A stretch of DNA of 64,000 bases, taken from positions 1-64,000 of IMG/VR virus record IMGVR_UViG_3300023179_000021; one strand, written 5' to 3'. A program made the position numbers and the translations under genes. The notes beneath the pieces were generated by a model, which was not told the DNA's origin, made no database searches, and saw only the letters and a program-made list of their open reading frames with translations. This document shows positions 27,105 through 53,987 of this stretch, in pieces. The DNA comes from a virus. Positions within the stretch are counted from its first letter, which is position 1; each line of letters opens with the position of its first letter.

Positions 27105-28010
27105 ATGGCAATTAAGGTAGCCGGGACAGTTGTAATTGATGACTCCCGTGTCGTTTCAAATTTAGGTTCTGCGCTTACAGTTAGCAATGGTGGCACAGGC
27201 GCAGGGTCTTTTACAGCAAACAGTTTACTTGTTGGAAATGCTACTTCATCTTTCCAACTTATAGCACCAGGAACATCTGCGAATGTTCTCACCTCCAACG
27301 GAACAAATTGGTATTCATCGGCTCCTGCAGCTGGTGGCGGTGGTTCTGGTCTTTTCAACACTTCAATTAGCACTGGCGTTGGATATTCATTAACTGACGC
27401 AATGGCCAATGCTTATGCCTCAGCAGCAACAGTCGGTTATCGTTACATTGTTCATTCGATTCATGTCACAAATATCAATGGTTTAAGCGCCGCAAATGTT
27501 TCGGGCCAAATTGTTGGAGGTACAGGGTCATACAGTAGCATCGCTTTTGCTAATACTGTTCCGGTTCCAGCTGGTAGTTCAGTGGAATTATTAAAGGCTC
27601 CAAAAATACTACAACCCGAAGATTACATACAATTACAATCTTCGGTAAGCGGTGATTTACATGCTACATTAACTATTGAAACCTCCACTGATACAAAATA
27701 TTTTGGCGCCGGTATTGATGTTACTTCAGCCACAACATACACACAACTTTATGCAATGACTGCTAATTCTGTTGTTGAAAGTGTATTGTTATCAAATGAC
27801 GATCCTTTGTATGATGTTAAAGTTCGTGTTCTTTGGACTAACGCATCGGATGTAATTCAAGGATATTTAGCTTATGAATTAATTGTACCATCTCAGGCTA
27901 CTGTTGAAATTATTGAAAAACCAAAATTCTTTGAAAGTGGTTATAAAGTTAAAGTTTATTCAAATCAAGCTAATCGTATTGAAGCGATCATTGCAGGAAA
28001 AACGGTTTAA
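27105..28010 (+). CDS. Putative fibre-associated structural protein
   Basis: MAIKVAGTVVIDDSR N-terminus, GGTG motif, two related beta-rich domains. Confidence 0.55.
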   Translation: MAIKVAGTVVIDDSRVVSNLGSALTVSNGGTGAGSFTANSLLVGNATSSFQLIAPGTSANVLTSNGTNWYSSAPAAGGGGSGLFNTSISTGVGYSLTDAMANAYASAATVGYRYIVHSIHVTNINGLSAANVSGQIVGGTGSYSSIAFANTVPVPAGSSVELLKAPKILQPEDYIQLQSSVSGDLHATLTIETSTDTKYFGAGIDVTSATTYTQLYAMTANSVVESVLLSNDDPLYDVKVRVLWTNASDVIQGYLAYELIVPSQATVEIIEKPKFFESGYKVKVYSNQANRIEAIIAGKTV

Positions 28011-28012
28011 TT

Positions 28013-30202
28013 ATGCCAGCAACAACAAAAGGTGCATGGAAATTACAAGAAGTTCGTGATGCTTTGTTAGCCGGCGAATGGGTTTCATATAGCCCTCTTG
28101 GTGATGCCGGTGAATTGTGGGTATGGGGTTTTAATCTTTATGGCCAACTAGGAGACAATACCACAACTAATAGATCCTCTCCAATCCAGATACCAGGTAC
28201 CTCCTGGAATGATATAGCAGGTGGTTGTCAGCATTCCTTCGCTCGTAAAACCGATGGTACCTTATGGTCATGGGGTTATAATTCTTTTGGCTCACTAGGA
28301 GACAATACCACAACTTGTAGATCCTCTCCAGTCCAGATACCAGGTACCTCCTGGAATGATATAGCAGGTGGTAGTGTTCATTCCTTAGCTCGTAAATCCG
28401 ATGGTACTTTATGGTCATGGGGTCGTAATAATAATGGCCAACTAGGAGACAATACCACAACTTCTAGATCCTCTCCAGTCCAGATACCAGGTACCCAATG
28501 GAATGATATAGCAGGTGGTAATAGTCATTCCTTAGCTCGTAAATCTGATGGTACCTTATGGGCATGGGGTCTTAATTCTACTGGCCAACTAGGAGACAAT
28601 ACTGCAACTTGTAGATCCTCTCCAGTCCAGATACCAGGTATCCAATGGAATGATATAGCAGGTGGTAGTCTTCATTCCTTAGCTCGTAAATCTGATGGTA
28701 CCTTATGGGTATGGGGTTGTAATCAATATGGCCAACTAGGAGACAATACCACAACTAATAGATCCTCTCCAGTCCAGATACCAGGTACCCAATGGAATGA
28801 TATAGCAAGTGGTGGTTATCATTCCTTAGCTCGTAAATCCGATGGTACCTTGTGGGTATGGGGTTATAATCCTTTTGGCCAAATAGGAGACAATACCACA
28901 GCTCCTGGATCCTCTCCAGTCCAGATACCAGGTACCCAATGGAATGATATAGCAAGTGGTAATTTTTATTCCTTAGCTCGTAAATCTGATGGTACATTAT
29001 GGTCATGGGGTGCTAATAATTATGGCCAAATAGGAGACAATACCAAAACTTATAGATCCTCTCCAGTCCAGATACCAGGTACCCAATGGAATGATATAGC
29101 AGGTGGTTTTTATCATCCCTTAGCTCGTAAATCTGTAGCTCCTGTTTTTAATGATAATTTAGGATCTACCTTATGGGCATGGGGTCGTAATTCTACTGGC
29201 CAACTAGGAGACAATACCACAACTTGTAGATCCTCTCCAATCCAAATACCAGGTACCCAATGGAATGATATAGCAGGTGGTAATTACCATTCCTTAGCTC
29301 GTAAATCCGATGGTACCTTATGGGCATGGGGTTCTAATTTTTTTGGCCAACTAGGAGACAATACCAGAACTTATAGATCCTCTCCAGTTCAGGTACCAGG
29401 TACCCAATGGAATGATATAGCAGGTGGTAACCATTCCTTAGCTCGTAAAACCGATGGTACCTTATGGGTATGGGGTTGTAATCAATATGGCCAACTAGGA
29501 GACAATACCACAACTAATAGATCCTCTCCAGTCCAGATACCAGGTACCCAATGGAATGATATAGCAAGTGGTGGTTATCATTCCTTCGCTCGTAAATCCG
29601 ATGGTACCTTATGGTCATGGGGTTATAATGCTTTTGGCCAACTAGCAGACAATACCAGAACTTGTAGATCCTCTCCAGTCCAGGTACCAGGTACCCAATG
29701 GAATGATATAGCAAGTGGTAATTTTTATTCCTTAGCTCGTAAATCTGATGGTACATTATGGTCATGGGGTGCTAATAATTATGGCCAAATAGGAGACAAT
29801 ACCACAACTTGTAGATCCTCTCCAGTCCAGATACCAGGTACCCAATGGAATGATATAGAAGGTGGTTGTAACCATTCTTTAGCTCGTAAATCCGATGGTA
29901 CCTTATGGTCATGGGGTTATAATCTTTATGGCCAACTAGGAGACAATACCACAACTTGTAGATCCTCTCCAATCCAGATACCAGGTACCCAATGGAATGA
30001 TATAGCAGGTGGTGGTAACCATTCTTTAGCTCGTAAATCTGATGGTACCTTATGGGTATGGGGTCGTAATAATTGTGGCCAACTAGGAGACAATACCACA
30101 ACTTATAGATCCTCTCCAGTCCAGGTACCAGGTACCCAATGGAATGATATAGCAAGTGGTAATAGTCACTCTTTAGCCATCAAATACAATAATACCGCTT
30201 AA
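28013..30202 (+). CDS. RCC1/BLIP-II-type repeat protein 1 (2 x 7 blades)
   Basis: 14 repeats of ~49 aa: LWxWGxNxxGQLGDNTTTxRSSPVQIPGTQWNDIAGGxxHSLARKSDGT. Confidence 0.92.
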   Translation: MPATTKGAWKLQEVRDALLAGEWVSYSPLGDAGELWVWGFNLYGQLGDNTTTNRSSPIQIPGTSWNDIAGGCQHSFARKTDGTLWSWGYNSFGSLGDNTTTCRSSPVQIPGTSWNDIAGGSVHSLARKSDGTLWSWGRNNNGQLGDNTTTSRSSPVQIPGTQWNDIAGGNSHSLARKSDGTLWAWGLNSTGQLGDNTATCRSSPVQIPGIQWNDIAGGSLHSLARKSDGTLWVWGCNQYGQLGDNTTTNRSSPVQIPGTQWNDIASGGYHSLARKSDGTLWVWGYNPFGQIGDNTTAPGSSPVQIPGTQWNDIASGNFYSLARKSDGTLWSWGANNYGQIGDNTKTYRSSPVQIPGTQWNDIAGGFYHPLARKSVAPVFNDNLGSTLWAWGRNSTGQLGDNTTTCRSSPIQIPGTQWNDIAGGNYHSLARKSDGTLWAWGSNFFGQLGDNTRTYRSSPVQVPGTQWNDIAGGNHSLARKTDGTLWVWGCNQYGQLGDNTTTNRSSPVQIPGTQWNDIASGGYHSFARKSDGTLWSWGYNAFGQLADNTRTCRSSPVQVPGTQWNDIASGNFYSLARKSDGTLWSWGANNYGQIGDNTTTCRSSPVQIPGTQWNDIEGGCNHSLARKSDGTLWSWGYNLYGQLGDNTTTCRSSPIQIPGTQWNDIAGGGNHSLARKSDGTLWVWGRNNCGQLGDNTTTYRSSPVQVPGTQWNDIASGNSHSLAIKYNNTA
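28112..30183 (+). repeat. 147-bp coding tandem repeat, 14 units in two blocks of 7
   Basis: Near-identical nucleotide units with a short linker at ~29133-29165. Confidence 0.92.
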
Positions 30203-30218
30203 CTTTTAACAAACAATT

Positions 30219-31094
30219 ATGAGATATTTCAAATTCACACAAATCTCCGGCGAAACAGGACGATCATGGGCTTTTGCTCAACCAGTTTCGGGACCTTCGT
30301 TTCCAAACCTTCCTGGAATCACCAATATTATTAAACTTGACCATGATTCTTTTTATTACGTCGGTGAGATTTCTGGTGAGACTGATATTCCCACCATCCA
30401 GGAATACCAAGATGCTATTAGTTACTTAGCTGATGAAAACAATAGACCTCAACGAACACCCGATCAACCACTTATTCCTGAAGTTCCTGAAGATTCTCCA
30501 TGGCGTGTCGCAGAAAGAACCGCAAATAGGTATCAAAATTATGTAAACAATGGCAACCTTTGCTTTGAAATAACATTCGAAGAATATGCACAAGAACTGG
30601 AAAAAACAGTTACATTCCATATCAACAAACGAAAGGCCACAATTTATGATGAAGAGAAATCCTTTCGCCAATCAATCTTTTCTAAATACGATGAAACAGC
30701 CGCTATCGCTGGAATTTATAAGTATCAGGAAGCCCTTGAATTGTTAGCCAATGAAAATGCCTTAGCTCCACAAGTACGCCAAGAAGCAACCATTCGTGGT
30801 GTTTCACCAAGTGTTATGGCTACAAGAATTAAAGACAATCACGAAAGTTTTAGAACCAAAGAAACTAAGATTGCAGGTATTCGAGGTTTAATTCAAGATA
30901 GGTTAAATAATTTTGTGTTTGATGTAAATGATGCTGTGGGATCCTATAATGAATTTTATTCTTTGGATATCATAGGTACACGAACAGAAATGCGTCTTAA
31001 CCCAGAAGCACCCGGTGAACAAATTGAAACCACTGTGAATATAACTGTACCTAAGTATGAATTGGCATTAGAACAAAGATTCTATCAGACATGA
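30219..31094 (+). CDS. Hypothetical protein, possibly a tail-fibre assembly chaperone
   Basis: EA.IRGV....MA.RI...H..F....IAGIR helical motif reminiscent of fibre assembly proteins. Confidence 0.45.
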   Translation: MRYFKFTQISGETGRSWAFAQPVSGPSFPNLPGITNIIKLDHDSFYYVGEISGETDIPTIQEYQDAISYLADENNRPQRTPDQPLIPEVPEDSPWRVAERTANRYQNYVNNGNLCFEITFEEYAQELEKTVTFHINKRKATIYDEEKSFRQSIFSKYDETAAIAGIYKYQEALELLANENALAPQVRQEATIRGVSPSVMATRIKDNHESFRTKETKIAGIRGLIQDRLNNFVFDVNDAVGSYNEFYSLDIIGTRTEMRLNPEAPGEQIETTVNITVPKYELALEQRFYQT

Positions 31095-33280
31095 CAACAA
31101 TTACAACAACAAAATGTGGTGCTTGGATACTTGATGATACTTATAAAAAAGTTCAATCGGGATATTGGACCTATGATGCTACGTTTGAAGGTGAATTGTG
31201 GTTATGGGGTCGTAATACTTATGGCCAACTGGGAGACAATACCACAACTTGTAGATCCTCTCCAATCCAGATACCAGGTACCTCCTGGAATGATATAGCA
31301 GGTGGTTGTCAGCATTCCTTCGCTCGTAAAACCGATGGTACCTTATGGGTATGGGGTTCTAATGTTTATGGCCAAATAGGAGACAATACCACAACTTATA
31401 GATCCTCTCCAGTCCAGGTACCAGGTACCCAATGGAATGATATAGTAGGTGGTAATAGTCATTCCTTAGCTCGTAAATCCGATGGTACCTTGTGGGTATG
31501 GGGTTATAATGTTTATGGCCAAATAGGAGACAATACCAGAACTCAAAGGTCCTCTCCAGTCCAGATACCAGGTACCTCCTGGAATGATATAGGAGGTGGT
31601 GGTTATCATTCCTTAGCTCGTAAATCTGATGGTACCTTGTGGGCATGGGGTGCTAATCCTTATGGCTCACTAGGAGACAATACCACAACTCCTAGATCCT
31701 CTCCAGTCCAGGTACCAGGTACCTCCTGGAATGATATAGCAAGTGGTGGTTGTCATCATTCCTTAGCTCGTAAATCCGATGGTACCTTATGGTCATGGGG
31801 TTATAATAGTTTTGGCTCACTAGGAGACAATACCAGAACTCAAAGATCCTCTCCAGTCCAGATACCAGGTACCCAATGGAATGATATAGCAAGTGGTAGT
31901 TTTCATTCCTTAGCTCGTAAATCTGATGGTACATTATGGTCATGGGGTGCTAATAATTATGGCCAAATAGGAGACAATACCATAACTCAAAGATCCTCTC
32001 CAGTCCAGATACCAGGTACCCAATGGAATGATATAGCAGGTGGTGATTATCATTCCTTAGCTCGTAAATCCGATGGTACCTTGTGGTCATGGGGTCTTAA
32101 TCAATTTGGCCAACTAGGAGACAATACCAAAACTTATAGATCCTCTCCAGTCCAGGTACCAGGTACCCAATGGAATGATATAGCAGGTGGTTTTTATCAT
32201 CCCTTAGCTCGTAAACCTGTGGCTCCTGTTTTTGGTGAAGGATGTACACTTTGGGCATGGGGTCGTAATGCTGAAGGCCAACTAGGAGACAATACCACAA
32301 CTAATAGATCCTCTCCAGTCCAGGTACCAGGTACCCAATGGAGTGATATAGCAGGTGGTTGTAGTCATTCCTTAGCTCGTAAATCCGATGGTACCTTATG
32401 GTCATGGGGTTATAATAATAATGGCCAATTAGGAGACAATACCACAACTTGTAGATCCTCTCCAGTCCAGATACCAGGTACCTCCTGGAATGATATTGTG
32501 AGTGGTAGTATTCATTCCTTAGCTCGTAAATCCGATGGTACCTTATGGGTATGGGGTCGTAATCAATATGGCGAACTAGGAGACAATACCACAACTTGTA
32601 GATCCTCTCCAGTTCAGGTACCAGGTACCCAATGGAATGATATAGCAGGTGGTAATTACCATTCCTTAGCTCGTAAATCCGATGGTACCTTATGGTCATG
32701 GGGTTCTAATTTTTTTGGCCAACTAGGAGACAATACCAGAACTAATAGGTCCTCTCCAATCCAGGTACCAGGTACCCAATGGAATGATATAGCAAGTGGT
32801 AGTCTTCATTCCTTAGCTCGTAAATCCGATGGTACCTTATGGGTATGGGGTCGTAATGATTCTGGCGAACTAGGAGACAATACCACAACTAATAGATCCT
32901 CTCCAGTCCAGATACCAGGTACCCAATGGAATGATATAGAAGGTGGTTGTGTCCATTCCTTAGCTCGTAAATCCGATGGTACCTTATGGTCATGGGGTTA
33001 TAATTGTTTTGGCCGACTAGGAGACAATACCACAACTTGTAGATCTTCTCCAGTCCAGGTACCAGGTACCACATGGAATGATATAGAAAGTGGTGATCTC
33101 CATTCCTTAGCTCGTAAATCCGATGGTACCTTATGGATATGGGGTGTTAATGCTTCTGGCGAACTAGGAGACAATACCAGAACTACTAGATCCTCTCCAG
33201 TCCAGATACCAGGTACCCAATGGAATGATATAGCAGGTGGTAATAACCATTCTTTAGCCATCAAATGTTTTCCGGTATAA
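31091..33280 (+). CDS. RCC1/BLIP-II-type repeat protein 2 (2 x 7 blades)
   Basis: 14 repeats of the same unit. Confidence 0.92.
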   Translation: MTTITTTKCGAWILDDTYKKVQSGYWTYDATFEGELWLWGRNTYGQLGDNTTTCRSSPIQIPGTSWNDIAGGCQHSFARKTDGTLWVWGSNVYGQIGDNTTTYRSSPVQVPGTQWNDIVGGNSHSLARKSDGTLWVWGYNVYGQIGDNTRTQRSSPVQIPGTSWNDIGGGGYHSLARKSDGTLWAWGANPYGSLGDNTTTPRSSPVQVPGTSWNDIASGGCHHSLARKSDGTLWSWGYNSFGSLGDNTRTQRSSPVQIPGTQWNDIASGSFHSLARKSDGTLWSWGANNYGQIGDNTITQRSSPVQIPGTQWNDIAGGDYHSLARKSDGTLWSWGLNQFGQLGDNTKTYRSSPVQVPGTQWNDIAGGFYHPLARKPVAPVFGEGCTLWAWGRNAEGQLGDNTTTNRSSPVQVPGTQWSDIAGGCSHSLARKSDGTLWSWGYNNNGQLGDNTTTCRSSPVQIPGTSWNDIVSGSIHSLARKSDGTLWVWGRNQYGELGDNTTTCRSSPVQVPGTQWNDIAGGNYHSLARKSDGTLWSWGSNFFGQLGDNTRTNRSSPIQVPGTQWNDIASGSLHSLARKSDGTLWVWGRNDSGELGDNTTTNRSSPVQIPGTQWNDIEGGCVHSLARKSDGTLWSWGYNCFGRLGDNTTTCRSSPVQVPGTTWNDIESGDLHSLARKSDGTLWIWGVNASGELGDNTRTTRSSPVQIPGTQWNDIAGGNNHSLAIKCFPV
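31193..33264 (+). repeat. 147-bp coding tandem repeat, 14 units
   Basis: Same unit as 28112-30183. Confidence 0.92.
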
Positions 33281-33300
33281 TTATTATTTTTTTATAAATT

Positions 33301-33882
33301 ATGCTTTTATTTGATTATGTTACGGTGATGCCAAACTGCTTAAATGATTCTTTACTTGATATGTATTTGTCATTAAAAGAACAAGAAGTTTCTCCGGCAC
33401 TTACCGGTTATTCCGATAACCAAAAAACAAACCTTGAGTATCGTAAAACAAATTGGATTCCTATACCTTATGACCTTTTACAACAAACTCAGGCCTCCAT
33501 TACTTCTTTTTATAATGGTATGCTTCTTGACAAATATAAACAACCAATTAAATTTATTGAACCTACACAATTACTCCATTACCCCGTTGGTGGTGAATAT
33601 AAAGAACATAATGATTCTGAAGATTTTGTCCACGGAAAACTGACAAGAGTTTGCGAAAGAGACTTGTCGATTTTAGCCTACCTAAATGATGACTATGAAG
33701 GTGGTGAACTCGAACTAAATAACTTTAATGTGACATTTAAACCAAAGGCCGGAACTGTGATTTGCTTTCCTTCCTACATTGAATTCACACACCGAGTTTA
33801 TCCGGTGACCAAAGGTAACAGATATACACTTGCAACATGGATATGCACCTATGAACGAATCTACTCCAGACCATACTTATGA
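33301..33882 (+). CDS. 2OG-Fe(II) oxygenase, prolyl 4-hydroxylase-like
   Basis: QLLHY..G.EY..HND..LS...YLNDDYEGGEL..FP....H.V.PV.KG.RY. Confidence 0.88.
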   Translation: MLLFDYVTVMPNCLNDSLLDMYLSLKEQEVSPALTGYSDNQKTNLEYRKTNWIPIPYDLLQQTQASITSFYNGMLLDKYKQPIKFIEPTQLLHYPVGGEYKEHNDSEDFVHGKLTRVCERDLSILAYLNDDYEGGELELNNFNVTFKPKAGTVICFPSYIEFTHRVYPVTKGNRYTLATWICTYERIYSRPYL

Positions 33883-34492
33883 CAAAGAAGGCTTTATCGT
33901 ACTTCGAAAATTTATACCACATTTTTTCGCTGACTACCTTAAAACCTATTTCGACACATTAAAAACAAACGATAAATTACAAAAAGGCGATGCACAAGTC
34001 GGTAATTCTTTGTGTACCTATGGTGACCCAGCCTTTGATACTTTTATGCTTATGTCGGCACCTTTGATTTCTGGTGCCGTAGGAAAGCAATTATTTCCAA
34101 CTTATACTTACGCACGAATTTATTACAAAGGCTCCGAATTACTTCCACATATTGATCGAGATGAGTGTGAACATTCGGTATCGGTATTTCTTGGTGGTGA
34201 ATATGATACGCTATGGCCAATTTGGATGCTAAATAAAGAAGTACACAAGCAACCTCAAATGTGTGCGCTTTATTCTGGTGATGCCGTAGTTTATCAGGGA
34301 AACAAAGTACATCATTGGCGTGATGGTTTCGAGGGCACCTCACACTATCAATTGTTTATGCACTTTGTTGAAGCCGATGGCAAACACAAGGATAAAATTT
34401 ACGACACTCGCCCCTTTATAGGATTACCAAGTGACACAAAAACAGATTATGGACTTTCAAGCGATCAACGACCAAGCGAAGAACCTGTTTGA
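33851..34492 (+). CDS. 2OG-Fe(II) oxygenase
   Basis: PTYTYARIY..G..L..H.DR..CE.S..GDAVVY.G....HWR..FMHFV. Confidence 0.8.
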   Translation: MNESTPDHTYDKEGFIVLRKFIPHFFADYLKTYFDTLKTNDKLQKGDAQVGNSLCTYGDPAFDTFMLMSAPLISGAVGKQLFPTYTYARIYYKGSELLPHIDRDECEHSVSVFLGGEYDTLWPIWMLNKEVHKQPQMCALYSGDAVVYQGNKVHHWRDGFEGTSHYQLFMHFVEADGKHKDKIYDTRPFIGLPSDTKTDYGLSSDQRPSEEPV

Positions 34493-45796: not shown

Positions 45797-46017
45797 ACAA
45801 ATATCATATCAGATTTAATACTAATCATAGTGGCACACCTTTGGTTTGGCGTGTATTCGAAAACGGCATCGAACATTTAGCAACCGATGTTCGTATTATA
45901 GGTGAAACTTTTACCGAATGTACCGAAGAACATGGTCAAATCAAATGGAATATTGCTTGTTTAGGAAATTTAACCTGGTCGGATAAGTCTGCAACTATTA
46001 TAACAGTTAAGAACTAG
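45793..46017 (+). CDS. Hypothetical protein
   Basis: GTGA-overlapped ORF within the operon. Confidence 0.6.
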   Translation: MNKYHIRFNTNHSGTPLVWRVFENGIEHLATDVRIIGETFTECTEEHGQIKWNIACLGNLTWSDKSATIITVKN

Positions 46018-46018
46018 T

Positions 46019-46726
46019 GTGATACCCAAAATAGTTCACCTCTCTTGGAAAGATAAGAATCTTTTTGAGAGACATTCACCACTTATAATTTATGGTGTTA
46101 AAAGGCTTCGAGATTTAAACCCAGATTGGGACATAAGAATAACCATTGATGAAGAAATTAATGACTATTTAAATGAAACAATGCGGCATGATTTTTCTTT
46201 AGTTGAACATAAAGGCATTGTGGCCAAAACAGATATTTGGAGGCTCTATAAGTTACTTTATGAGGGTGGTATTTACGTTGACATTGACCGCTTCTGTGAT
46301 GTTAAATTGTCAGAAGTTATACCAAAAAATGTAAAACAAATTCTTCCTGTTTGTAGGTATTATGATTTTTCTCACGATTTAATGATAAGCGCACCAAATA
46401 ACCCGGTTTATAATACAACAATTTCAATGTATTTGCATCGTAGAAAGATAGGATTTGATAACATTTATTTCTTAGGCGCTCAAACCTACATGCACGCTAT
46501 CACTCATACTTTAGTTGGTGAAATGATTAACACGAATCCGGGCCAAGAAAAGTTTGAAGGAATAATAAATAAGATAAAAAGTCTAGGTTTCATTGAAGTT
46601 TTTGTTGAAGATCCGCCATATTTCACTTTTCTATATCGAAATCGTGAGGATATAGGTGACTGGGGAAAACTAAAGAAAGAATTCTACTCCAAATCAGGCA
46701 TCAAACATTGGACAGGAGAATGGTAA
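46019..46726 (+). CDS. Glycosyltransferase, GT32/DXD sugar-binding (OCH1-like)
   Basis: IPKIVH.SW..NPDW..DIWRL..L..EGGIYVDID. Confidence 0.85.
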   Translation: MIPKIVHLSWKDKNLFERHSPLIIYGVKRLRDLNPDWDIRITIDEEINDYLNETMRHDFSLVEHKGIVAKTDIWRLYKLLYEGGIYVDIDRFCDVKLSEVIPKNVKQILPVCRYYDFSHDLMISAPNNPVYNTTISMYLHRRKIGFDNIYFLGAQTYMHAITHTLVGEMINTNPGQEKFEGIINKIKSLGFIEVFVEDPPYFTFLYRNREDIGDWGKLKKEFYSKSGIKHWTGEW

Positions 46727-46773: not shown

Positions 46774-47109
46774 TTGGCAGACTTTGTAGAACTCGACATT
46801 GAGGCCGGTGCGACATTTTCATTACAAATTACAATTAAAAATGATAATGGAACTGGTAAAAATTTAGCAAATCACATTTTTACAGGCCAGCTTCGAAGGT
46901 CTTATTATTCCTCTACTGCTAACAATTTCACCATAACTGTTGATGATACTGCAAATGGTGTTATTTCTTTAGGGATTTCTTCAGCTAATACCGCAAACCT
47001 TCGTGCTGGCCGTTATGTTTTTGATATTGAAATGGATGACACATCCAACACTACTGTTACAAGAGTGGTAGAAGGTATTGCTACGGTTCTGCCAAATGTA
47101 ACAAGATAG
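46774..47109 (+). CDS. Small virion structural/adaptor protein (TTG start)
   Basis: L.IE.GATF..GRYVFDIE..TRVVEG.ATV.P.VT; GAGGAG RBS. Confidence 0.65.
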   Translation: MADFVELDIEAGATFSLQITIKNDNGTGKNLANHIFTGQLRRSYYSSTANNFTITVDDTANGVISLGISSANTANLRAGRYVFDIEMDDTSNTTVTRVVEGIATVLPNVTR

Positions 47110-47113
47110 TTAC

Positions 47114-49771
47114 ATGAAAATAGAAATAACCAAGGCTAGTCCTTCTGTTAGCACTGTAAAACTTGGAGGTAATTTAACAGCAGCAGTTGCAACGGGTGTT
47201 CAAGGAACTTCAGGTTTTTCCGGTTACAGTGGAGATAATCCAGGCTCAAGTGGTTATTCTGGTCGTTCTGGTTTTTCCGGTTACAGTGGAGATAATCCAG
47301 GCTCAAGTGGTTATTCGGGTCGTTCGGGTTATTCTGGTTACTCAGGTATTTCTGGTTTTTCTGGTTTTTCTGGTTTTTCGGGTGCTCAATTTGTAGGATC
47401 ATCTGGTTATTCAGGTGTATCTGGTTACTCTGGTAATAGTACATCAGGTTATTCGGGACCATCGGGTTACTCCGGGTTTTCTGGTGTTTCCGGTTACTCT
47501 GGTATTTCGGGTGCTTCAGGTATCTCAGGTTATTCTGGACAATCTGGTTTTTCTGGTACTTCCGGGATAAGTGGTTTTTCTGGCGCTTCTGGTTACTCTG
47601 GTTTCTCAGGCATTTCAGGCTATTCGGGACCATCAGGATATTCTGGTCAATCGGGATTTTCTGGCCAAATTGGTAACTCCGGTTATTCTGGTCAATTAGG
47701 CATTTCTGGTTATTCTGGCCAATTAGGTACATCCGGTTACTCCGGTGTCTCTGGTTATTCCGGCATTTCTGGTTATTCCGGATTCTCTGGTATTTCCGGA
47801 TACTCAGGCGTTTCTGGTTATTCTGGATATTCTGGTATTTCAGGCGCTTCAGGTATAAGTGGTTATTTCGGTATTTCTGGATATTCTGGATTTTCTGGTT
47901 ATTCCGGGTTTTCTGGTATTTCTGGTGCTTCGGGTTTATCTGGTTATTCTAGTATCTCTGGTTATTCCGGGTTTTCTGGTATTTCTGGTGCTTCGGGTTT
48001 ATCTGGTTACTCAGGTATTTCTGGATTTTCTGGTATCTCTGGTTATTCTGGGTTTTCCGGTATTTCAGGTGCTTCGGGTTTATCTGGTTATTCTGGTATT
48101 TCTGGTTATTCGGGAAGCGTTGGTGCGGTTGGAGGATTTTTCTTTTATACTTTCGACACCGCTAAGACAACAGATACCGCACCAGATTCACAATCATTTC
48201 ATTCAAATAGTCCGGGAAGCCAAGCATTAATTTCTAAACTTTGGTTTGATGATGATGATATAGCCGGCGCAAATGTTTATCCTTTTGTGAGTTCTGTTTT
48301 CAATACGACAGGAACACCTAAAGGTTTTTTAAGTATTCGTGGTTCAGCTGGCACTGAACGTCTTTACATACAAGTTGATTCTGTAACAAAGAAAACTGGA
48401 TATTATGAATTAAGTGTTACTGTGCTTTCAAATTCACCAGATGCATTAGATGATGGTGATTTGTCTGGATTTAATTTAACGAGAAATGGTGATTCGGGCA
48501 CCTCTGGTTATTCTGGTATAAGTGGTTATTCCGGCATATCCGGATATTCAGGTTATTCTGGTATATCTGGTTACTCCGGTTTTTCGGGTATTTCTGGTTA
48601 CTCCGGATTCTCAGGTATTTCTGGCTATTCCGGTTATTCTGGCATTTCAGGTACTTCTGGTATATCTGGTTATTCAGGCGTTTCTGGTTACTCCGGATTC
48701 TCAGGTATTTCTGGCTATTCCGGTTATTCTGGCATTTCAGGTACTTCTGGTATATCTGGTTATTCAGGCGTTTCTGGTTACTCCGGATTCTCAGGTATTT
48801 CTGGCTATTCTGGCTATTCTGGTATTTCGGGTTACTCTGGTTATTCGGGCATTTCTGGTTACTCCGGATTCTCAGGTATTTCTGGCTATTCTGGCTATTC
48901 TGGTATTTCGGGTTACTCTGGTTATTCGGGCATTTCTGGTTATTCTGGATATTCTGGTATTTCTGGTGCTTTGGGTATTTCTGGTTACTCTGGATTTTCA
49001 GGTATTTCGGGTTACTCTGGTTATTCGGGCATTTCTGGTTATTCTGGATATTCTGGTATTTCAGGCGATTCAGGTATAAATGGTTATTCTGGTATTTCTG
49101 GATATTCTGGATTTTCTGGTTACTCCGGGTTTTCTGGTATTTCTGGTTACTCTGGATTTTCTGGTATTTCAGGAGCTTCAGGCATTTCTGGATTTTCTGG
49201 TATTTCTGGCTATTCTGGTATTTCTGGTGCTTCGGGTATTTCTGGTTACTCTGGATTTTTTGGTATTTCTGGATTCTCTGGTATTTCTGGATTCTCTGGT
49301 ATTTCTGGTTTTTCTGGCGCTGCCGGTCCATCAACCACAATTAACGCCACAAATGATACAACAACAGCTTCTGATTTTTATCCTGTATTTGTTGCTGGAA
49401 CCGGATCAAACCAAACAGCTACAGCATCTTCAACCAAACTTTATTTCAGACCTTCAACTGGACAATTAAGCGCTACAGATTTCAACACACTTTCGGATAT
49501 AGCATATAAAGAAAATATAGACACTATCCATAATGCACTAAATAAAGTATTAGAACTAAGAGGAGTTTCTTATCAGTTTAGAGATTCAAATAAACCCGCT
49601 TTTGGAGTTATCGCTCAAGAAATAGAGAATGTTTTGCCTGAAGTTGTTAATCAAAATGATAATGGCGACAAAACTGTATCTTACAATCATATTATTGCTG
49701 TGTTGATTGAAGCTATTAAAGAACAACAACAAATTATAGATAAAATAAATCATAAAATAAAGAACTTGTAA
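47114..49771 (+). CDS. Long collagen-like (Ser-Gly-X)n fibre with central globular domain and C-terminal peptidase S74 chaperone
   Basis: Gly at every third residue (SGY/SGF/SGI); LSD.AYKENI..GVIAQEIE..LPEVV..VSY..LIEAIKE. Confidence 0.85.
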   Translation: MKIEITKASPSVSTVKLGGNLTAAVATGVQGTSGFSGYSGDNPGSSGYSGRSGFSGYSGDNPGSSGYSGRSGYSGYSGISGFSGFSGFSGAQFVGSSGYSGVSGYSGNSTSGYSGPSGYSGFSGVSGYSGISGASGISGYSGQSGFSGTSGISGFSGASGYSGFSGISGYSGPSGYSGQSGFSGQIGNSGYSGQLGISGYSGQLGTSGYSGVSGYSGISGYSGFSGISGYSGVSGYSGYSGISGASGISGYFGISGYSGFSGYSGFSGISGASGLSGYSSISGYSGFSGISGASGLSGYSGISGFSGISGYSGFSGISGASGLSGYSGISGYSGSVGAVGGFFFYTFDTAKTTDTAPDSQSFHSNSPGSQALISKLWFDDDDIAGANVYPFVSSVFNTTGTPKGFLSIRGSAGTERLYIQVDSVTKKTGYYELSVTVLSNSPDALDDGDLSGFNLTRNGDSGTSGYSGISGYSGISGYSGYSGISGYSGFSGISGYSGFSGISGYSGYSGISGTSGISGYSGVSGYSGFSGISGYSGYSGISGTSGISGYSGVSGYSGFSGISGYSGYSGISGYSGYSGISGYSGFSGISGYSGYSGISGYSGYSGISGYSGYSGISGALGISGYSGFSGISGYSGYSGISGYSGYSGISGDSGINGYSGISGYSGFSGYSGFSGISGYSGFSGISGASGISGFSGISGYSGISGASGISGYSGFFGISGFSGISGFSGISGFSGAAGPSTTINATNDTTTASDFYPVFVAGTGSNQTATASSTKLYFRPSTGQLSATDFNTLSDIAYKENIDTIHNALNKVLELRGVSYQFRDSNKPAFGVIAQEIENVLPEVVNQNDNGDKTVSYNHIIAVLIEAIKEQQQIIDKINHKIKNL
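47207..49320 (+). repeat. Low-complexity 9-bp period (tcNggNNNN) coding repeat in two blocks (~47207-48115 and ~48490-49320) with higher-order 57-, 54- and 90-bp duplications
   Basis: tctggttat/tctggtatt/tctggattt units. Confidence 0.85.
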
Positions 49772-49772
49772 A

Positions 49773-50654
49773 ATGGCAATATCACTAAGAACACTATTAG
49801 GCGCAGGCGTATCGGGTTATTCGGGTAAATCCGGTTTTTCTGGTTATTCTGGCACTTCGGGTACTTCTGCTTATTCCGGTATTTCAGGTTTTTCTGGCCG
49901 ATCAGGTTATTCTGGTATCTCTGGTTATTCTGGAATATCTGGTTATTCCGGCATTTCTGGTTATTCTGGTTATTCCGGCATTTCTGGTTATTCTGGTTAT
50001 TCCGGCATCTCTGGTTATTCTGGTTATAGTGGTTATTCTGGTGTTTCTGGATATAGTGCGGCTTCACCTGGACCAGAAGGTGTATCTGGTTATTCTGGTT
50101 ACTCTGGTTATTCCGGCATCTCTGGGTATTCAAGTTATTCCGGCATCTCTGGTTATTCCGGCATTTCCGGTTATTCCGGCATTTCCGGTTATTCCGGCAT
50201 TTCCGGTTATTCTGGTGCTTCAGGCCCATCCACCACAATTAATGCTACAAATGATACAACAACAGCTTCTGATTTTTATCCGGTATTTGTTGCAGCTACA
50301 GGTTCAAACCAGACAGCCACAGCATCTTCAACCAAACTTTATTTTAGGCCATCTACTGGCCAGTTGAGTGCTACAGATTTCAATACACTTTCTGATGTAG
50401 CGTATAAAGAAAATATTGAGCCAATTAATAATGCGCTAAATAAGATATTAGAGTTGCGTGGCGTTTCTTATCGTATGAAAGGTTCTAAAAAGCAATCTTT
50501 GGGTGTTATTGCACAAGAAATTCAACATATATTGCCTGAAGTTGTTAATCAAAATGATAATGGTGATAAAACAGTTTCTTATAACCACATTATTGCTGTA
50601 CTAATTGAAGCTATTAAAGAACTTAAAGAAGAGATAGACCGATTTAAAAAATAA
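49773..50654 (+). CDS. Short collagen-like (Ser-Gly-X)n fibre with peptidase S74 chaperone
   Basis: SGY/SGI triplets; C-terminus closely similar to the upstream fibre. Confidence 0.85.
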   Translation: MAISLRTLLGAGVSGYSGKSGFSGYSGTSGTSAYSGISGFSGRSGYSGISGYSGISGYSGISGYSGYSGISGYSGYSGISGYSGYSGYSGVSGYSAASPGPEGVSGYSGYSGYSGISGYSSYSGISGYSGISGYSGISGYSGISGYSGASGPSTTINATNDTTTASDFYPVFVAATGSNQTATASSTKLYFRPSTGQLSATDFNTLSDVAYKENIEPINNALNKILELRGVSYRMKGSKKQSLGVIAQEIQHILPEVVNQNDNGDKTVSYNHIIAVLIEAIKELKEEIDRFKK

Positions 50655-50668
50655 AATTTGGAGTTGTT

Positions 50669-52603
50669 ATGAAATATAGTGTGGTGATACCAACATATAA
50701 TCACTGTGATGATTTTCTTAAACCATGTATCGAATCAATTTTAGAATACACTCATATGAAAGACATAGAATTAATTGTGTCAGCCAATGGGTGTACCGAT
50801 AACACAAAAGAATACCTTGAAAGTCTAAAACTTAATACAAGTATTCATCTAAAAATAATTTGGTCCGATAGTGCAATTGGTTTTGCCAAAGCTGTTAATT
50901 TAGGCATTAAAGCCGCATCTTGTGATAAAATTATTCTTCTTAATAATGATACCAAACTTCTTCAACAAGAAAAAAACACCTGGTTAAATTTACTTGAAGC
51001 ACCCTTTGAAAATGAAAAATGTGGTATTTCTTGTGTGGTAAAAGAATACTCTAAAGTAATGAATAAAGATTTTGCTGTTTTCTTTTGTGTAATGATTGAC
51101 CGAAAAGTGTTTAATACCATTGGTTATTTAAATGAAGAATATGAAATTGGTTCAGGCGAAGATATGGAATTTTCTATTCTTGCCGAAGCGGCTGGGTTTC
51201 AAGTTACACAAGTTTCTGATAAAATAAAACTTGATCGAAAATATTTTACTGGTTCTTTTCCCATATATCATTTTGGTGAAGGTACTGTACACGACGAATC
51301 TTTAGTGCCGAATTGGAGTTCTGTATTTTTAAAAAATGCTTTGAAGGTAGCTAAGAAACATAATGAAGAATGGAGAAAAGAAAAAAACATGAATCATCCT
51401 AAAATTGGTGTAATTACTCCCGTTTATAATGATACCGAACATTTATTTCATGCAATTAATTCGGTAGAAACTCAAAATTTAGGTAATGTTGTACACTTTA
51501 TCTATGATGACTGTTCAACCGATGGCCTTGTAAATTCGGTCAGAGATTATATGAAAGGCAACAAATCGATTGTCTATATGAAAGGCATTGAAAACAAAGG
51601 CCAAGCACATTCAAGAAATCAAGCAATCACTGCAGCTCTCGCCGAGGGTTGCAATTATTTAGCTTTTTTAGATTCAGATGATGTTTGGTTTCCAAATCAT
51701 TTACAAAGAGCACTTGATGATTTAAGAACTAAAAATTGTGACATTGTTTATTCAACTCCACAATTTGTAACTGAAGATGGCCAAATTGTTTTTCCTTATA
51801 ACATTCCAGTGCCACATGTTTTTATTGGCAAACAACTAAGACATAATAACTTTATTTGGGTTTCAAGTGTCGTTTGTAATGCTCGTTGTTTTCTTTATGA
51901 AAAATTTGATGATACATTAAACAGCGTTGAAGAATGGGATATGTGGATTAGATTAGATGCAAGAGGATATAAATTTTATAAAGATGATGAAATAACCACT
52001 CGTTATTTGGTTCGTGATGGGTCGCAAGCCTCAAAGGGTGGTGAAAAGATGCCATTGTTTTGGCAGAAACATCAACAGTTACCGCAACTTAAATTACATT
52101 TGGCTTGTGGCCACGATTATGATGAGGATTATATCAACATTGATTTATATGCTCCTGAAGATGCTAGATGTGATATTCGTTTTGATGTTCAAAAATTACC
52201 GTATGATGATAATACCATTGATGAAATCAAGGCCTTTCATATCATTGAACATTTTCACTTTTTTGAAATACAAGAAGTTCTCAAAGAATGGCATCGTGTG
52301 CTGAAGCCCGGCGGAAAATTATATCTTGAAACTCCGGATTTTTTAGAAACTTGTCGTTCTTTTGTTGAAGGTAGTCCGATACCAGGTTATGATATAGAAC
52401 AATGGAGAATTTTGTTATACGGTCATTTTTTCGCTCATGCTTGGATTCCTGGGCAAATACATAAATTTTTATTTACTGAAACACAACTTAGAACAAACCT
52501 TGGATGGGCTGGGTTTAAAACTGTAAACCGTGTTCGGCCGGCGTCTAAGTATGTAATGAACGAAACACATCATTTATTTTTAACAGTTGAGGCTTTTAAG
52601 TGA
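50669..52603 (+). CDS. GT2-GT2-methyltransferase multidomain protein
   Basis: YSVVIPTYN..LLNND; IGVITPVYN..DDCSTD..FLDSDD; LHLACG..HIIEHF..RVLKPGG.L. Confidence 0.85.
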   Translation: MKYSVVIPTYNHCDDFLKPCIESILEYTHMKDIELIVSANGCTDNTKEYLESLKLNTSIHLKIIWSDSAIGFAKAVNLGIKAASCDKIILLNNDTKLLQQEKNTWLNLLEAPFENEKCGISCVVKEYSKVMNKDFAVFFCVMIDRKVFNTIGYLNEEYEIGSGEDMEFSILAEAAGFQVTQVSDKIKLDRKYFTGSFPIYHFGEGTVHDESLVPNWSSVFLKNALKVAKKHNEEWRKEKNMNHPKIGVITPVYNDTEHLFHAINSVETQNLGNVVHFIYDDCSTDGLVNSVRDYMKGNKSIVYMKGIENKGQAHSRNQAITAALAEGCNYLAFLDSDDVWFPNHLQRALDDLRTKNCDIVYSTPQFVTEDGQIVFPYNIPVPHVFIGKQLRHNNFIWVSSVVCNARCFLYEKFDDTLNSVEEWDMWIRLDARGYKFYKDDEITTRYLVRDGSQASKGGEKMPLFWQKHQQLPQLKLHLACGHDYDEDYINIDLYAPEDARCDIRFDVQKLPYDDNTIDEIKAFHIIEHFHFFEIQEVLKEWHRVLKPGGKLYLETPDFLETCRSFVEGSPIPGYDIEQWRILLYGHFFAHAWIPGQIHKFLFTETQLRTNLGWAGFKTVNRVRPASKYVMNETHHLFLTVEAFK

Positions 52604-53562
52604 GTATATTGTGTTCTATTTCCACTAAAGGTAGATATGATACAACACTACCAATGGCTATACAATCGGTTATTACACAAACTCTTTTACCAAATAAATT
52701 TGTATTGTTTGATGATAATGATGAACCAAAAGATTTAAGAGATATACAACATTATCAATACCTTTTTAAAATTCTCGACGAAAAAAATATTCAATGGGAA
52801 GTAGTTTTTGGACCTAAAAAAGGCCAACATCACAATCATCAAATAGCTAACAGTATGAATTATGAATGGGTTTGGAGGTTAGATGATGACACAGTGGCTG
52901 AATCAAATGTTCTAGAAAATTTAATGTCTTATACAAATTCAAAAGTTGGTGCAGTTGGTGGTTCAATATTAACACCACCATATATTAAAGGCCTTCAGTC
53001 AACCGGAAAAATTGAAAATATTGAAGAACAAAATATTCAATGGGATATGATAACAAATGTTAAAGAAGTTGACCATTTACATTGTTCTTTTGTTTATCGT
53101 GCCGGTATTCAAGACTATAACCTTTCATTATCGAGAGCAGCATTTCGTGAAGAAACATTATTTACTTTTGGTTTAAAACAAAAAGGCTATAAATTACTTG
53201 TCGTACCAAATGCTATAACTTGGCATCTTAAAAATCAATCTGGTGGTGTAAGAACAAATACCAAAGAAATGTTCGACAATGATGATCGAATATTTAAAAA
53301 CTTTTTGCAATTTAAAGATAAAACAATTGTAGTTCTTGATTGTGGTATGGGCGACCACATAGTATTTTCACATGTGCTTGATGACATACCAAATGCTGAA
53401 ATATTTTCTTGCTATCCCGACATAGTGCCAGGTCGAAGTATTGCTGAAGCTATAGATTTATTTGGTGAAATAGATCAATTCAATGTTTACAGAAAAATGG
53501 ATCAATGGAATTGGAAAGATTCATTAGAAAATGCCTTTCGAAAGATGTATATTGTAAAATGA
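52600..53562 (+). CDS. GT2-like glycosyltransferase with a C-terminal GT9-like N-domain
   Basis: QSVITQT..FDDND..WRLDDD..REET; CGMGDHI. Confidence 0.75.
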   Translation: MSILCSISTKGRYDTTLPMAIQSVITQTLLPNKFVLFDDNDEPKDLRDIQHYQYLFKILDEKNIQWEVVFGPKKGQHHNHQIANSMNYEWVWRLDDDTVAESNVLENLMSYTNSKVGAVGGSILTPPYIKGLQSTGKIENIEEQNIQWDMITNVKEVDHLHCSFVYRAGIQDYNLSLSRAAFREETLFTFGLKQKGYKLLVVPNAITWHLKNQSGGVRTNTKEMFDNDDRIFKNFLQFKDKTIVVLDCGMGDHIVFSHVLDDIPNAEIFSCYPDIVPGRSIAEAIDLFGEIDQFNVYRKMDQWNWKDSLENAFRKMYIVK

Positions 53563-53987
53563 TAATTATTTCTCCTTATTCAAAACCTCTTCGTAATGGA
53601 CAAAATAATCCTAAAAATTACCCATATTGGAAAGAACTGATTTCATTAATTAAAGAACCAATTATACAAGTGGGAACTAATGAAGAAATTCAACTTGTAA
53701 AAGAGTTTCATAAAAATTTATCAATACCTGAGCTTCGAAACCTTATAAATTCATGTCGAACATGGATTTCAGTTGACAGTTTTTTTCAGCATTTAGCCTG
53801 GGATCAAGGTAAACCCGGCATTGTGCTTTGGGGGCAATCAGATCCGTTGATATTTGGTCATCCTGAAAACACAAATTTATTAAAAGATCGTTCTTATTTG
53901 CGGGAAAAACAATTTTGGTTGTGGGAACAATGTAACTATAGAAAGGAGGCCTTTGTCGAACCGGCAGAAGTTCTAAAGTATTTGTAA
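53559..53987 (+). CDS. GT9-like glycosyltransferase C-terminal domain
   Basis: KNYPYW..IQVG..ISVDSFFQHLA...KPGIVLWG. Confidence 0.72.
   Translation: MIIISPYSKPLRNGQNNPKNYPYWKELISLIKEPIIQVGTNEEIQLVKEFHKNLSIPELRNLINSCRTWISVDSFFQHLAWDQGKPGIVLWGQSDPLIFGHPENTNLLKDRSYLREKQFWLWEQCNYRKEAFVEPAEVLKYL

Follow-up and report, generated by a model that had tools for sequence, protein, structure and literature searches.

Two gene cassettes of a T4-like phage link candidate adhesins to putative protein-modifying enzymes

What do glycosyltransferases (GTs), oxygenases, methyltransferases and a sulfotransferase act on when they are encoded among the structural genes of a phage? We asked this of a block at positions 27105-53987 of a 64,000-nt window, the first 64 kb of the 145.6-kb IMG/VR record IMGVR_UViG_3300023179_000021 (83% complete). 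The source phage is a T4-like myovirus whose portal is only ~51-56% identical to the portals of cyanomyoviruses and of Stenotrophomonas phage DLP_6, and near-identical DNA was not found among deposited phages. The genes run from baseplate and wedge genes through a 1982-aa (amino acid) fibre-type protein to the block, and from there to gp13-, gp14-, gp15-, terminase-, sheath-, tube- and portal-type genes. We found that the block is not a loose island of auxiliary metabolic genes (AMGs) but two conserved cassettes, A (27105-46726) and B (46774-53987). On balance, we consider it probable that they encode exposed virion proteins together with soluble enzymes that decorate the phage’s own adhesins and fibres in the host cytoplasm, late in infection and before assembly.

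The division into cassettes is seen in close relatives of the phage. Fourteen contigs (77-99% protein identity) keep the order of cassette B, namely a 111-aa assembly-like protein, one or more collagen-like fibres, a GT2-GT2-methyltransferase, a 320-aa GT2, a 160-aa GT9-like protein and gp13. Positions 27105-46726 are wholly missing in 4/4 close relatives with enough upstream sequence, and no RCC1 repeats were found in the five longest close-relative records tested. Since these relatives carry cassette B without the sequence of cassette A, the two are separable.

We searched the block proteins against Pfam, PHROGs and NCBIfam. The main open reading frames (ORFs, named here by their start coordinates) all lie on the + strand, with many stop/start overlaps of 1-4 nt, and a late-promoter-like motif heads the block, as an earlier sequence-only reading of the window had described. 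The three RCC1 double propellers, two (SGX)n fibres, two methyltransferase domains (ORF 43074 and the C-terminus of ORF 50669) and sulfotransferase that it had listed were all recovered, the fibres as (Gly-X-Ser)n proteins with S74 ends, by translation and Pfam. Its GT families were also present, with 9 GT domains spread over 8 genes instead of about nine. Of the five 2-oxoglutarate (2OG)-Fe(II) oxygenases it had counted we found four, three by Pfam (ORFs 33301, 35611 and 39786) and one by phrog_61 (ORF 36219), and Pfam and PHROGs gave no fifth. The enzyme toolkit it proposed is indeed linked to the fibres and propellers, in two cassettes instead of one.

Cassette A: RCC1 propellers, a TPR-GT9 enzyme and a sulfotransferase

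The three RCC1 proteins of cassette A (727-729 aa, 14 repeats each) are mutually 73-78% identical. Their 42 repeats share an invariant scaffold, TLW.WG.N..GQLGDNT.T.RSSPVQIPGTQWNDI, on which positions 7, 9, 10, 20, 39 and 40 are hypervariable; judged from the repeats, this looks to be the pattern of a diversified binding face. We looked for a diversity-generating retroelement (DGR) as a possible source of this diversity. The 145.6-kb record gave no reverse transcriptase; at a completeness of 83%, a DGR may still be the source.

Between the second and third propeller genes lies a 399-aa enzyme, TPR-GT9, whose family alignment shows conserved GT9-type motifs. An AlphaFold2 (AF2) model with a mean confidence (pLDDT) of 92.7 consists of a TPR domain and a GT-B domain. 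The TPR domain is supported by Pfam matches at residues 11-115, model helices at 9-129 and matches to TPR structures at Z 11-13. Residues 151-399 align with the GT9 structures 3tov (Z 16.6), WaaF (1psw, Z 15.9) and WaaC (Z 14.7), and residues 138-399 with TibC (4rap; Z 14.8, rmsd 3.5, 234 residues aligned). A whole-chain Foldseek search placed SPY and OGT first (E 4e-7; TM 0.3-0.38), whereas the catalytic part by itself is closer to GT9 (Z 14-16.6) than to OGT (Z 10.9-11.4 at rmsd >13). From this model, TPR-GT9 is a candidate protein O-glycosyltransferase.

Several known systems resemble this arrangement. TibC glycosylates TibA, and FlmG glycosylates flagellin; bacterial autotransporter heptosyltransferases (BAHTs) use an ADP-heptose donor and form an iron-binding dodecamer. 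In TibC/TibA and Aah/AIDA-I (4rap/4rb4), a soluble GT9-fold enzyme adjoins a repeat-built adhesin that is thought to be hyper-glycosylated in the cytoplasm, the same logic as that of TPR-GT9 and RCC1. The BAHT substrate is a beta-helix autotransporter, whereas the phage neighbour is an RCC1 beta-propeller whose role as a substrate we infer, and the phage enzyme further differs in its N-terminal TPR, in the frequent sulfotransferase fusion of its relatives and in its tail-fibre operon setting. By analogy, TPR-GT9 may thus be BAHT-like in its working, and we do not class it as a BAHT member. OGT and SPINDLY (GT41) and FlmG of Caulobacter (PMC7591256) likewise combine N-terminal protein-binding repeats with a C-terminal GT-B domain. 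The catalytic domain of TPR-GT9 aligns better with GT9 than with GT41, and the likeness to FlmG is one of architecture.

We then examined how faithfully the genes of cassette A travel together. An RCC1 protein used as a single IMG/VR query gave 3 loci only, a pattern search of this kind needing close relatives. TPR-GT9 has at least 546 relatives in IMG/VR, and we mapped the window proteins onto the best 79-80 of these viral loci (29-64% identity). An RCC1 gene was present in 74/79 and within 2 kb in 72/79, at a median gap of 144 bp; GT25 was found in 37/80 and the sulfotransferase in 31. Homologs of u301 (35-60%) lay directly upstream of RCC1 in 15/80 loci and of u291 upstream of an RCC1 gene in 14/80, the ORF 33301 oxygenase directly upstream of TPR-GT9 in 16/80, and u220 was syntenic in 9/80. 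A single continuous frame of 570-613 aa joins the sulfotransferase to the GT9 part in 17 viral and 3 genome loci, three of which were verified with Pfam; both activities are therefore tied to one pathway. The entire island, including u301, u291, u220, u154, u213 and u171, is syntenic at 44-76% in locus L178 and at 44-61% in L184-L193, and the 259-aa S74 fibre just outside the start of the block precedes u301-RCC1 in L178 and L182-L193. The weak GT9-like ORF 42139 is syntenic at 56-75% in 6 loci. The co-occurrence of RCC1 propellers and collagen-like fibres with such enzymes that had been suggested as a test was positive across hundreds of viral contigs, including phages without other close similarity, and is stronger than the sequence-only reading had put it.

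Cassette A also recurs in a distant T4-like phage (gp14 41% identical), where it is convergent to the fibre genes, and in the complete 194.6-kb genome L043. In two cultured cyanophages from freshwater, S-SRM01 and BUCT-ZZ01, it adjoins genes annotated as tail fibres. Only 4/50,697 deposited phage records contain the TPR-GT9 enzyme, a rarity that may be the reason why the cassette went unnoticed. The S-SRM01 paper (PMC8557907) contains no proteomics and does not mention the cassette genes. No paper describing these cassettes was returned by literature searches that paired RCC1 with phage fibres, with cyanophages, with Bdellovibrio or with Patescibacteria, or that paired collagen-like phage proteins with glycosyltransferases. 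Run against one genome per prokaryotic species, the TPR-GT9 alignment found 60 loci that, obvious phage contigs aside, belong nearly all to Bdellovibrionota (including 2 complete Bdellovibrio chromosomes) and Patescibacteria/Saccharibacteria. In 35/59 of these loci, some of which are possibly prophages or binning errors, an RCC1 gene is no more than 2 kb away, and the sulfotransferase is present in 15. Like phages, these organisms have to attach to other bacteria.

The sulfotransferase (39008-39865) gave no close relative as a single IMG/VR query; homologs at 22-64% identity were located via the TPR-GT9 loci. A profile of 13 homologs run against the PDB matched CurM (E 1.6e-13) and the protein-tyrosine sulfotransferases (TPSTs) TPST1/2 (E 4e-13 to 2e-12) over full length, compared with only E 1e-3 for heparan-sulfate enzymes. 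A GLPRSGST motif resembles the 5'-phosphosulfate-binding (5'-PSB) motif, with L10 and R12 invariant and G9, P11, G14, S15 and T16 conserved at >=90%; R114 and S122 are also invariant. We searched an AF2 model (pLDDT 86) against 48,161 PDB representatives without prefilter, and the top matches were TPSTs (8w5z, 5wri and 3ap3; Z 19.5-19.7 over 240-250 of 285 residues), followed by the olefin-synthase sulfotransferase 4gox (Z 17.1) and carbohydrate sulfotransferases (Z 14-15). TPST1/2 have the same fold and the same motifs for binding 3'-phosphoadenosine 5'-phosphosulfate (PAPS), at an identity of only 12-17%, and the polyketide/olefin-synthase enzymes CurM (4gbm) and 4gox match equally well by sequence. 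Unlike TPSTs, the phage enzyme is cytoplasmic and phage-encoded. The TPST-like fold of the model would favour a protein acceptor, and because the enzyme is structurally nearest to TPSTs, direct protein sulfation is at least as likely as a sulfated glycan; the sulfated glycan coat proposed earlier becomes one option only. Circumstantially, putative tyrosine sulfation fits with Tyr-rich fibres and with the Tyr that is common at the hypervariable RCC1 positions. To our knowledge, protein tyrosine sulfation has very rarely been reported in bacteria.

An APS-kinase fusion, which the sequence-only reading had seen in ORF 44960, was not established, and nor was a supply of PAPS. The N-terminal part matches PF01583 APS_kinase at 23.3 bits (cut-off 21.1), with KTI12 scoring about equally; the NCBIfam adenylyl-sulfate kinase reaches 22 bits against a cut-off of 127, and PDB entry 2yvu E 0.004. 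The C-terminal 110 aa match nicotinamide mononucleotide adenylyltransferases (NMNATs; NCBIfam E 7e-6 to 2e-4; PDB 2qjt E 9e-4), the HxGH motif reads GRWQPWHKGH, and no ATP sulfurylase domain was matched in the ORF by Pfam, NCBIfam or PDB profiles. We rejected a PAPS synthase as unsupported and describe the protein as a generic P-loop kinase with an NMNAT-like domain. Its environmental family, highly conserved and numbering >8000 proteins (the best 120 listed are 79-99% identical), is far commoner than the island; among cultured phages, relatives occur only in Sano-like Xylella/Stenotrophomonas phages and DLP_6, annotated ‘kinase’. A homolog does co-occur with the sulfotransferase in 7 loci, so that the protein may have some part in the decoration system, to which it is probably not specific. 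We similarly rejected ORF 33301 as a TET/JBP enzyme: Tet_JBP scores 20 bits against a cut-off of 34.9, and the prolyl-4-hydroxylase (P4H)-type family scores much better.

Cassette B: collagen-like fibres and a trio of transferase genes

Both fibres of cassette B have long uninterrupted repeats with Gly at every third residue, preceded by Ser, and with X mostly Tyr, Ile or Phe. The large fibre has its (Gly-X-Ser)n repeats in two tracts, with a globular insert in the centre and an S74 chaperone at the end. Pro-rich or charge-stabilised triplets were not seen in either fibre, the triplets being Gly-(Y/I/F/V/A)-Ser, in which Pro and charged residues are almost absent, and a triple helix is putative.

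The small fibre has >427 relatives in IMG/VR, and we mapped the window proteins onto the best 76 of these loci, most of which are on contigs that are not T4-like relatives. A homolog of the 320-aa GT2 (44-64%) was found in 41 loci, of the GT9-like protein in 39 and of one GT2 domain of the three-domain enzyme in 32, always directly downstream, co-oriented with the fibre and in unchanged order. When close relatives were excluded, the 320-aa GT2 lay within 6 kb downstream of the fibre in 20/40 loci and upstream in 1/40. This GT2 has 177 relatives in IMG/VR and is followed by the 160-aa GT9-like protein in 61/73 loci. In the reciprocal test, which started from the GT2 and counted collagen-like runs of >=10 triplets with Ser-rich third positions, such a run was found upstream in 21/41 loci and downstream in 3/36 (Fisher p 5e-5; loci not independent). 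These results come from homolog mapping, which we used in place of a crude Pfam GT2 census in 37 fibre-bearing records. The best PDB sequence matches of ORF 50669 are chondroitin synthase and PglI.

In several GT2 loci without a fibre, giant multi-GT genes displace it beyond the fetched flank, or other Gly/Ser/Thr-rich proteins take its place. The giant proteins measure 1314, 1489 and 2970 aa (G041:C1:6909-11423; L142:2532-7001; L120:3028-6972); that of 2970 aa has 5 GT2 Pfam matches and lies ~5.6 kb downstream of a fibre. In L120 and L142 the giant GT stands where the window has its three-domain enzyme, immediately before the homolog of the 320-aa GT2. At L134:458-4053, five tandem paralogs of ~210-260 aa, rich in Gly, Ser and Thr, stand upstream of a GT2 pair in the collagen-like fibre’s place. 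A record labelled as a giant-virus metagenome-assembled genome (MAG), IMGVR_UViG_GVMAG-M-3300022752-15_000001 (L095), encodes a Gly-Tyr-Ser fibre that is 62% identical over the repeat part.

Cassette B resembles the SgtA-BclA3 pair of Clostridioides difficile and Bacillus BclA, in which a GT lies beside a collagen-like gene with Ser or Thr at the third triplet position. SgtA (GT-A plus TPR, WcaA-like), encoded next to bclA3, modifies the Thr of Gly-Pro-Thr repeats with O-GlcNAc and can also use Ser (PMC7157674). The phage version differs in its S74 fibres, in Gly-(Tyr/Ile/Phe)-Ser in place of Gly-Pro-Thr, and in its three transferase genes and methyltransferase domain, and it is known from genes alone.

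Targets of the enzymes

How might the two cassettes work? In the mechanism we favour, the RCC1 double propellers would be variable binding heads, with six hypervariable loop positions per blade on an invariant scaffold, and the likely substrates of TPR-GT9, whose TPR domain would hold the protein while the GT9-fold domain adds the first sugar. Further sugars would be added by the GT25, GT2 and GT32 enzymes, and a methyl cap by the methyltransferase. Hydroxylation may be the task of the 2OG oxygenases, the P4H-type one among them, with invariant prolines in the SSPVQIPG loop as possible targets, and the TPST-like enzyme may sulfate tyrosines or the glycan. In cassette B, the Ser-rich collagen-like fibres would trimerise via their S74 chaperone, and their repeat serines would be O-glycosylated by the GT2-GT2-methyltransferase, the 320-aa GT2 and the GT9-like protein, as SgtA acts on BclA3. 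Gene content, order, folds, fusions and linkage are observed directly. From them we infer the substrates, the residues modified, namely Ser/Thr, hydroxy-Pro in the SSPVQIPG loop and Tyr, the chemistry, the oxygenase roles and the propellers as virion parts, and from the promoter motif the timing.

Proteins are favoured over DNA or lipopolysaccharide (LPS) as targets because the enzymes track structural genes, resemble protein-modifying enzymes and are without membrane segments. We found no transmembrane-type hydrophobic segment in any island protein; the one hydrophobic window, within TPR-GT9, is a buried Rossmann-fold strand in the AF2 model. The preference for virion proteins over DNA in the sequence-only reading is supported to this extent, with modification itself an extrapolation from these features.

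The expected timing comes from promoter-like motifs. TATAAATA occurs 3 times in the window compared with 9.2 expected, each time on the + strand and just upstream of genes, one copy heading the block. ATAAATA is three-fold depleted (12 copies vs 36 expected), with 11/12 copies on the + strand, either just upstream of genes or within coding sequence. Depletion together with strand bias is what a genuine late-promoter signal would look like, as if stray late-promoter cores were selected against. Between 26000 and 45900 only 2 terminator-like sites were found, both within ORFs, where 13.7 were expected. From the promoter motif, the block would be expressed late.

Several points weigh against this mechanism. 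The evidence that virion proteins are modified, and that RCC1 proteins sit in the virion, consists of gene linkage, which is also compatible with other joint functions, and the evidence for timing consists of a sequence motif. The RCC1 proteins are almost all propeller, with ~30 extra N-terminal residues and no recognisable virion-attachment domain. Cassette A is dispensable, as close relatives do without it altogether; the fibres are nearly without Pro or Lys, hence offer no obvious target for a P4H-type oxygenase; and about half of the unrelated GT2-trio loci have no fibre in the flank examined. Many of the compared loci are also mutually related, so that the counts overstate independence.

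The main rival is that the transferases are AMGs altering host LPS, capsule or cell wall, with the RCC1 and fibre genes being mere neighbours in a hyperplastic region. Bacterial GT2, GT9, GT25 and GT32 enzymes mostly act on LPS or polysaccharide, and the region from the fibre genes to gp13 is variable among close relatives of our phage. In the literature, GT clusters of cyanomyoviruses are usually interpreted in this way; S-SCSM2R, for example, has 22 ‘cell wall synthesis and modification’ genes, including 13 GTs, with homologs in P-SSM2 and S-SCSM1 (PMC12801897). Those clusters resemble the island in their many clustered GTs and in the GT2 and GT25 families; they differ in including sugar-nucleotide epimerases and Kds genes, read as host-surface modification, none of which was matched in the island, where the GTs are tied to RCC1 and fibre genes. 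Nor did Pfam or NCBIfam match a flippase, polymerase, ligase, initiating phosphoglycosyltransferase or other sugar-nucleotide synthesis gene (epimerase, dehydratase, Kds) in the island, which also lacks a membrane protein. Tight, ordered linkage to RCC1 and fibre genes in unrelated phages, Bdellovibrionota and Patescibacteria, a key enzyme with a TPR protein-binding domain and a sulfotransferase closest to TPSTs all argue for protein substrates, and we regard remodelling of the host surface as unlikely.

Alternatively, the propellers could remain inside the cell as host-takeover or anti-defence binders, with the enzymes modifying either the propellers or host proteins. Hypervariable loops would suit an arms race with host defence proteins, and neither a virion-attachment domain nor a signal peptide is recognisable in the RCC1 proteins. 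We nevertheless think that an intracellular role is quite unlikely, given that in T4-like and other phages the genes have tail-fibre genes as neighbours and a late-type motif ahead of them, and that the first two RCC1 genes each follow a u301 or u291 homolog in the window and in 13-14 related loci. RCC1 propellers are also embedded in giant proteins in some phages; on another viral contig such a protein measures 2846 aa, and a PhoH-like gene separates it from portal and capsid genes 5-9 kb further downstream. In phage GAP32, the RCC1 protein GAP32_001 was identified as a virion protein by mass spectrometry, and multi-copy arrays occur in 121Q and PBECO4 (PMC5259590). Further, the RCC1 module is found in cell-attaching predators and episymbionts, and in the episymbiont TM7x the minor pilin PilX2 carries an RCC1 propeller (PMC11623550).

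Decoration might instead be confined to cassette B, cassette A being an unrelated mobile island that makes a small molecule or free glycan bound by the propellers. RCC1-like propellers can bind ligands, the cassettes do separate in nature, with close relatives having B without A, and a collagen-like fibre is present in just 13/80 cassette A loci. The TPR domain, the TibC/OGT-like architecture and the TPST-like fold suggest protein substrates for cassette A as well, and sulfotransferase-GT9 fusions lie at a median of 144 bp from RCC1 genes, which makes this division of labour improbable. Hypermodification of phage DNA against restriction, an explanation routinely offered in papers for phage GTs and one for which phage TET/JBP-type oxygenases paired with GTs and the sub-threshold Tet_JBP match of ORF 33301 (E 4e-4) could be cited, is hardly credible here, as the best family of that ORF is the P4H type, GT2, GT9, GT25 and GT32 differ from known DNA glucosyltransferase types, and the genes sit in a late structural operon linked to propeller and fibre genes, also in cellular genomes.

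On the reading we favour, decoration of the phage’s own adhesins and fibres, the cassettes would provide dedicated cytoplasmic glycosylation of adhesins or virion proteins, which is a known kind of system, here widespread and undescribed in the papers searched. According to Freeman et al. 2023 (PMC10527164), as cited in PMC12619734 and PMC12801897, mycobacteriophages glycosylate virions with phage-encoded GTs that put glycans on the C-termini of capsid and tail-tube subunits. Compared with those targets, the presumed targets here are propellers and fibres, and oxygenases, a sulfotransferase and methyltransferases are present in addition. We tentatively put forward a broader possibility, for which the case is not yet an even one: that decorated RCC1 propellers are a common, undescribed prey-recognition adhesin of tailed phages, Bdellovibrio-like predators and Patescibacteria episymbionts, that enzymatic decoration including tyrosine sulfation helps to set their specificity or stability, and that Ser-rich fibres with their GT trio form a second, independent glyco-fibre module of aquatic phages. 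That the module is also present in Bdellovibrionota and Patescibacteria may point to a common mode of docking onto prey. The host range of phages is generally ascribed to the amino-acid sequence of their receptor-binding proteins. If our proposal is true, a large group of aquatic phages also tunes or protects its binding proteins by sugars, sulfate, methyl and hydroxyl groups, such decoration is invisible to sequence-based host prediction and fibre engineering, and the default annotation of phage GT clusters as host LPS genes needs revision. The cultured cyanophage carriers S-SRM01 and BUCT-ZZ01 make the idea directly testable.

Features of the block and further observations

The features are collected in Table 1. 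ORFs 33830, 34431, 39786, 42139 and 44088 start with TTG or GTG and each overlap the preceding gene, so their starts are uncertain.

Table 1. Genes and motifs of the block and its flanks (all on the + strand; positions are those of the window; SAM, S-adenosylmethionine)
Feature	Position	Evidence
Fibre-type protein, 1982 aa, upstream flank	20096-26044	phrog_358
Short fibre, 259 aa, Peptidase_S74 end	26262-27041	PF13884 E 4e-13; tail-fibre PHROGs
TATAAATA, T4-type late-promoter-like motif heading the block	27026-27033	Motif count
u301, always before an RCC1 gene; Gly/Ser/Thr/Asn-rich N-terminus, read as fibre-like	27105-28010	No Pfam/PHROG match
RCC1 double propeller 1, 729 aa, 14 repeats	28013-30202	PF00415 E 7e-144, 14 stretches
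u291, precedes second RCC1 gene, no recognisable features	30219-31094	No family match
RCC1 double propeller 2, 729 aa	31091-33280	Pfam; 78% identical to propeller 1
2OG-Fe(II) oxygenase, P4H-type (2OG-FeII_Oxy_3)	33301-33882	PF13640 E 6e-17
u220, start uncertain	33830-34492	phrog_2954 E 7e-46 (labelled ‘ferrochelatase’, doubtful); no Pfam match
TPR-GT9, 399 aa, candidate protein O-glycosyltransferase	34431-35630	TPR Pfam; GT-B fold (AF2)
2OG-Fe(II) oxygenase (2OG-FeII_Oxy_5)	35611-36219	PF13759 E 3e-9
2OG-Fe(II) oxygenase-like	36219-36806	phrog_61 E 3e-18 only; no Pfam match
RCC1 double propeller 3, 727 aa	36806-38989	Pfam; 73% identical to propeller 1
PAPS-type sulfotransferase	39008-39865	PF13469 E 2e-14
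2OG-Fe(II) oxygenase (2OG-FeII_Oxy_5), start uncertain	39786-40373	PF13759 E 1e-10
u154	40384-40848	No family match; homolog beside GT25 in 7 loci
GT25-family glycosyltransferase	40845-41522	PF01755 E 4e-9
u213	41519-42160	No family match; present in 14/80 loci
Weak GT9-like (heptosyltransferase-like)	42139-43080	PF01075 E 1e-3, below cut-off; NCBIfam heptosyltransferase III E 3e-4
Class I SAM methyltransferase (Methyltransf_24, O-methyltransferase-like)	43074-43667	PF13578 E 2e-14
u171, small Cys-rich protein (CxxCxxCC)	43664-44179	phrog_9155 E 5e-32
GT2, start uncertain	44088-44963	PF00535 E 6e-5, 23.6 bits vs cut-off 23.3
P-loop kinase + NMNAT-like nucleotidyltransferase fusion	44960-45796	Pfam, NCBIfam, PDB profile matches
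GT32-type (DXD sugar-binding region)	46019-46726	PF04488 E 1.5e-8
111-aa fibre-assembly-like protein	46774-47109	phrog_1084, phrog_3304 ‘L-shaped tail fiber protein assembly’
Large collagen-like fibre, 885 aa, S74 end	47114-49771	PF01391 E 2e-81; PF13884 E 1e-13
Small collagen-like fibre, 293 aa, S74 end	49773-50654	PF01391 E 6e-20; PF13884 E 2e-15
Three-domain GT2-GT2-SAM methyltransferase	50669-52603	PF00535 twice, Methyltransf_11; TuaG/WcaA-like (NCBIfam)
320-aa GT2, the fibre’s most faithful companion	52600-53562	Pfam
160-aa GT9-like protein (about one Rossmann half)	53505-53987	PF01075 E 6.5e-7
ATAAATA, next late-promoter-like site, before gp13	53989-53995	Motif count
gp13-, gp14- and gp15-type genes, downstream flank	54017, 54974, 55882	

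Among the smaller proteins, u171 again has RCC1 and the sulfotransferase as neighbours in G006, L043 and S-SRM01. It has further Cys and His residues besides its CxxCxxCC motif and travels with RCC1, sulfotransferase and GT genes in several phages; it may be a metal- or Fe-S-binding helper. We considered u301 and u291 as paralogs and rejected this, as there is no similarity between them.

In composition, the RCC1 part (28000-40000) has a G+C content of 0.40-0.43, compared with 0.32-0.35 in the backbone, and AT skew falls to -0.27 across the fibre genes (46-50 kb) because of the repetitive codons there. A 5.1-kb contig (RFNU01000161.1; L259) that is 97-99% identical to window positions 33301-36806 is filed in the MAG ‘bacterium LLD_282 Lanier’. 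It is a phage contig mis-binned into a bacterial MAG, and its ‘Lanier’ label hints at a lake origin for the phage. Other MAG matches, such as L280 with gp13-15, resemble this mis-binning.

Downstream of the block, close relatives differ in several places. In L019 (6487-9341) the large-terminase homolog is interrupted by ~1.1 kb (matches at 6487-7380 and 8481-9341), a split that may be an intron, intein or homing-endonuclease insertion. In L012 (5070-5661) ~590 bp separate the gp13 and gp14 homologs, compared with 3-24 bp in the window and other relatives. Finally, a small ‘DNA binding protein’ gene (phrog_3636; window 57274-57708) sits between the small and large terminase genes, and its alleles diverge sharply among relatives (99%, 69% and 47%) while the flanking genes are 76-99% identical.

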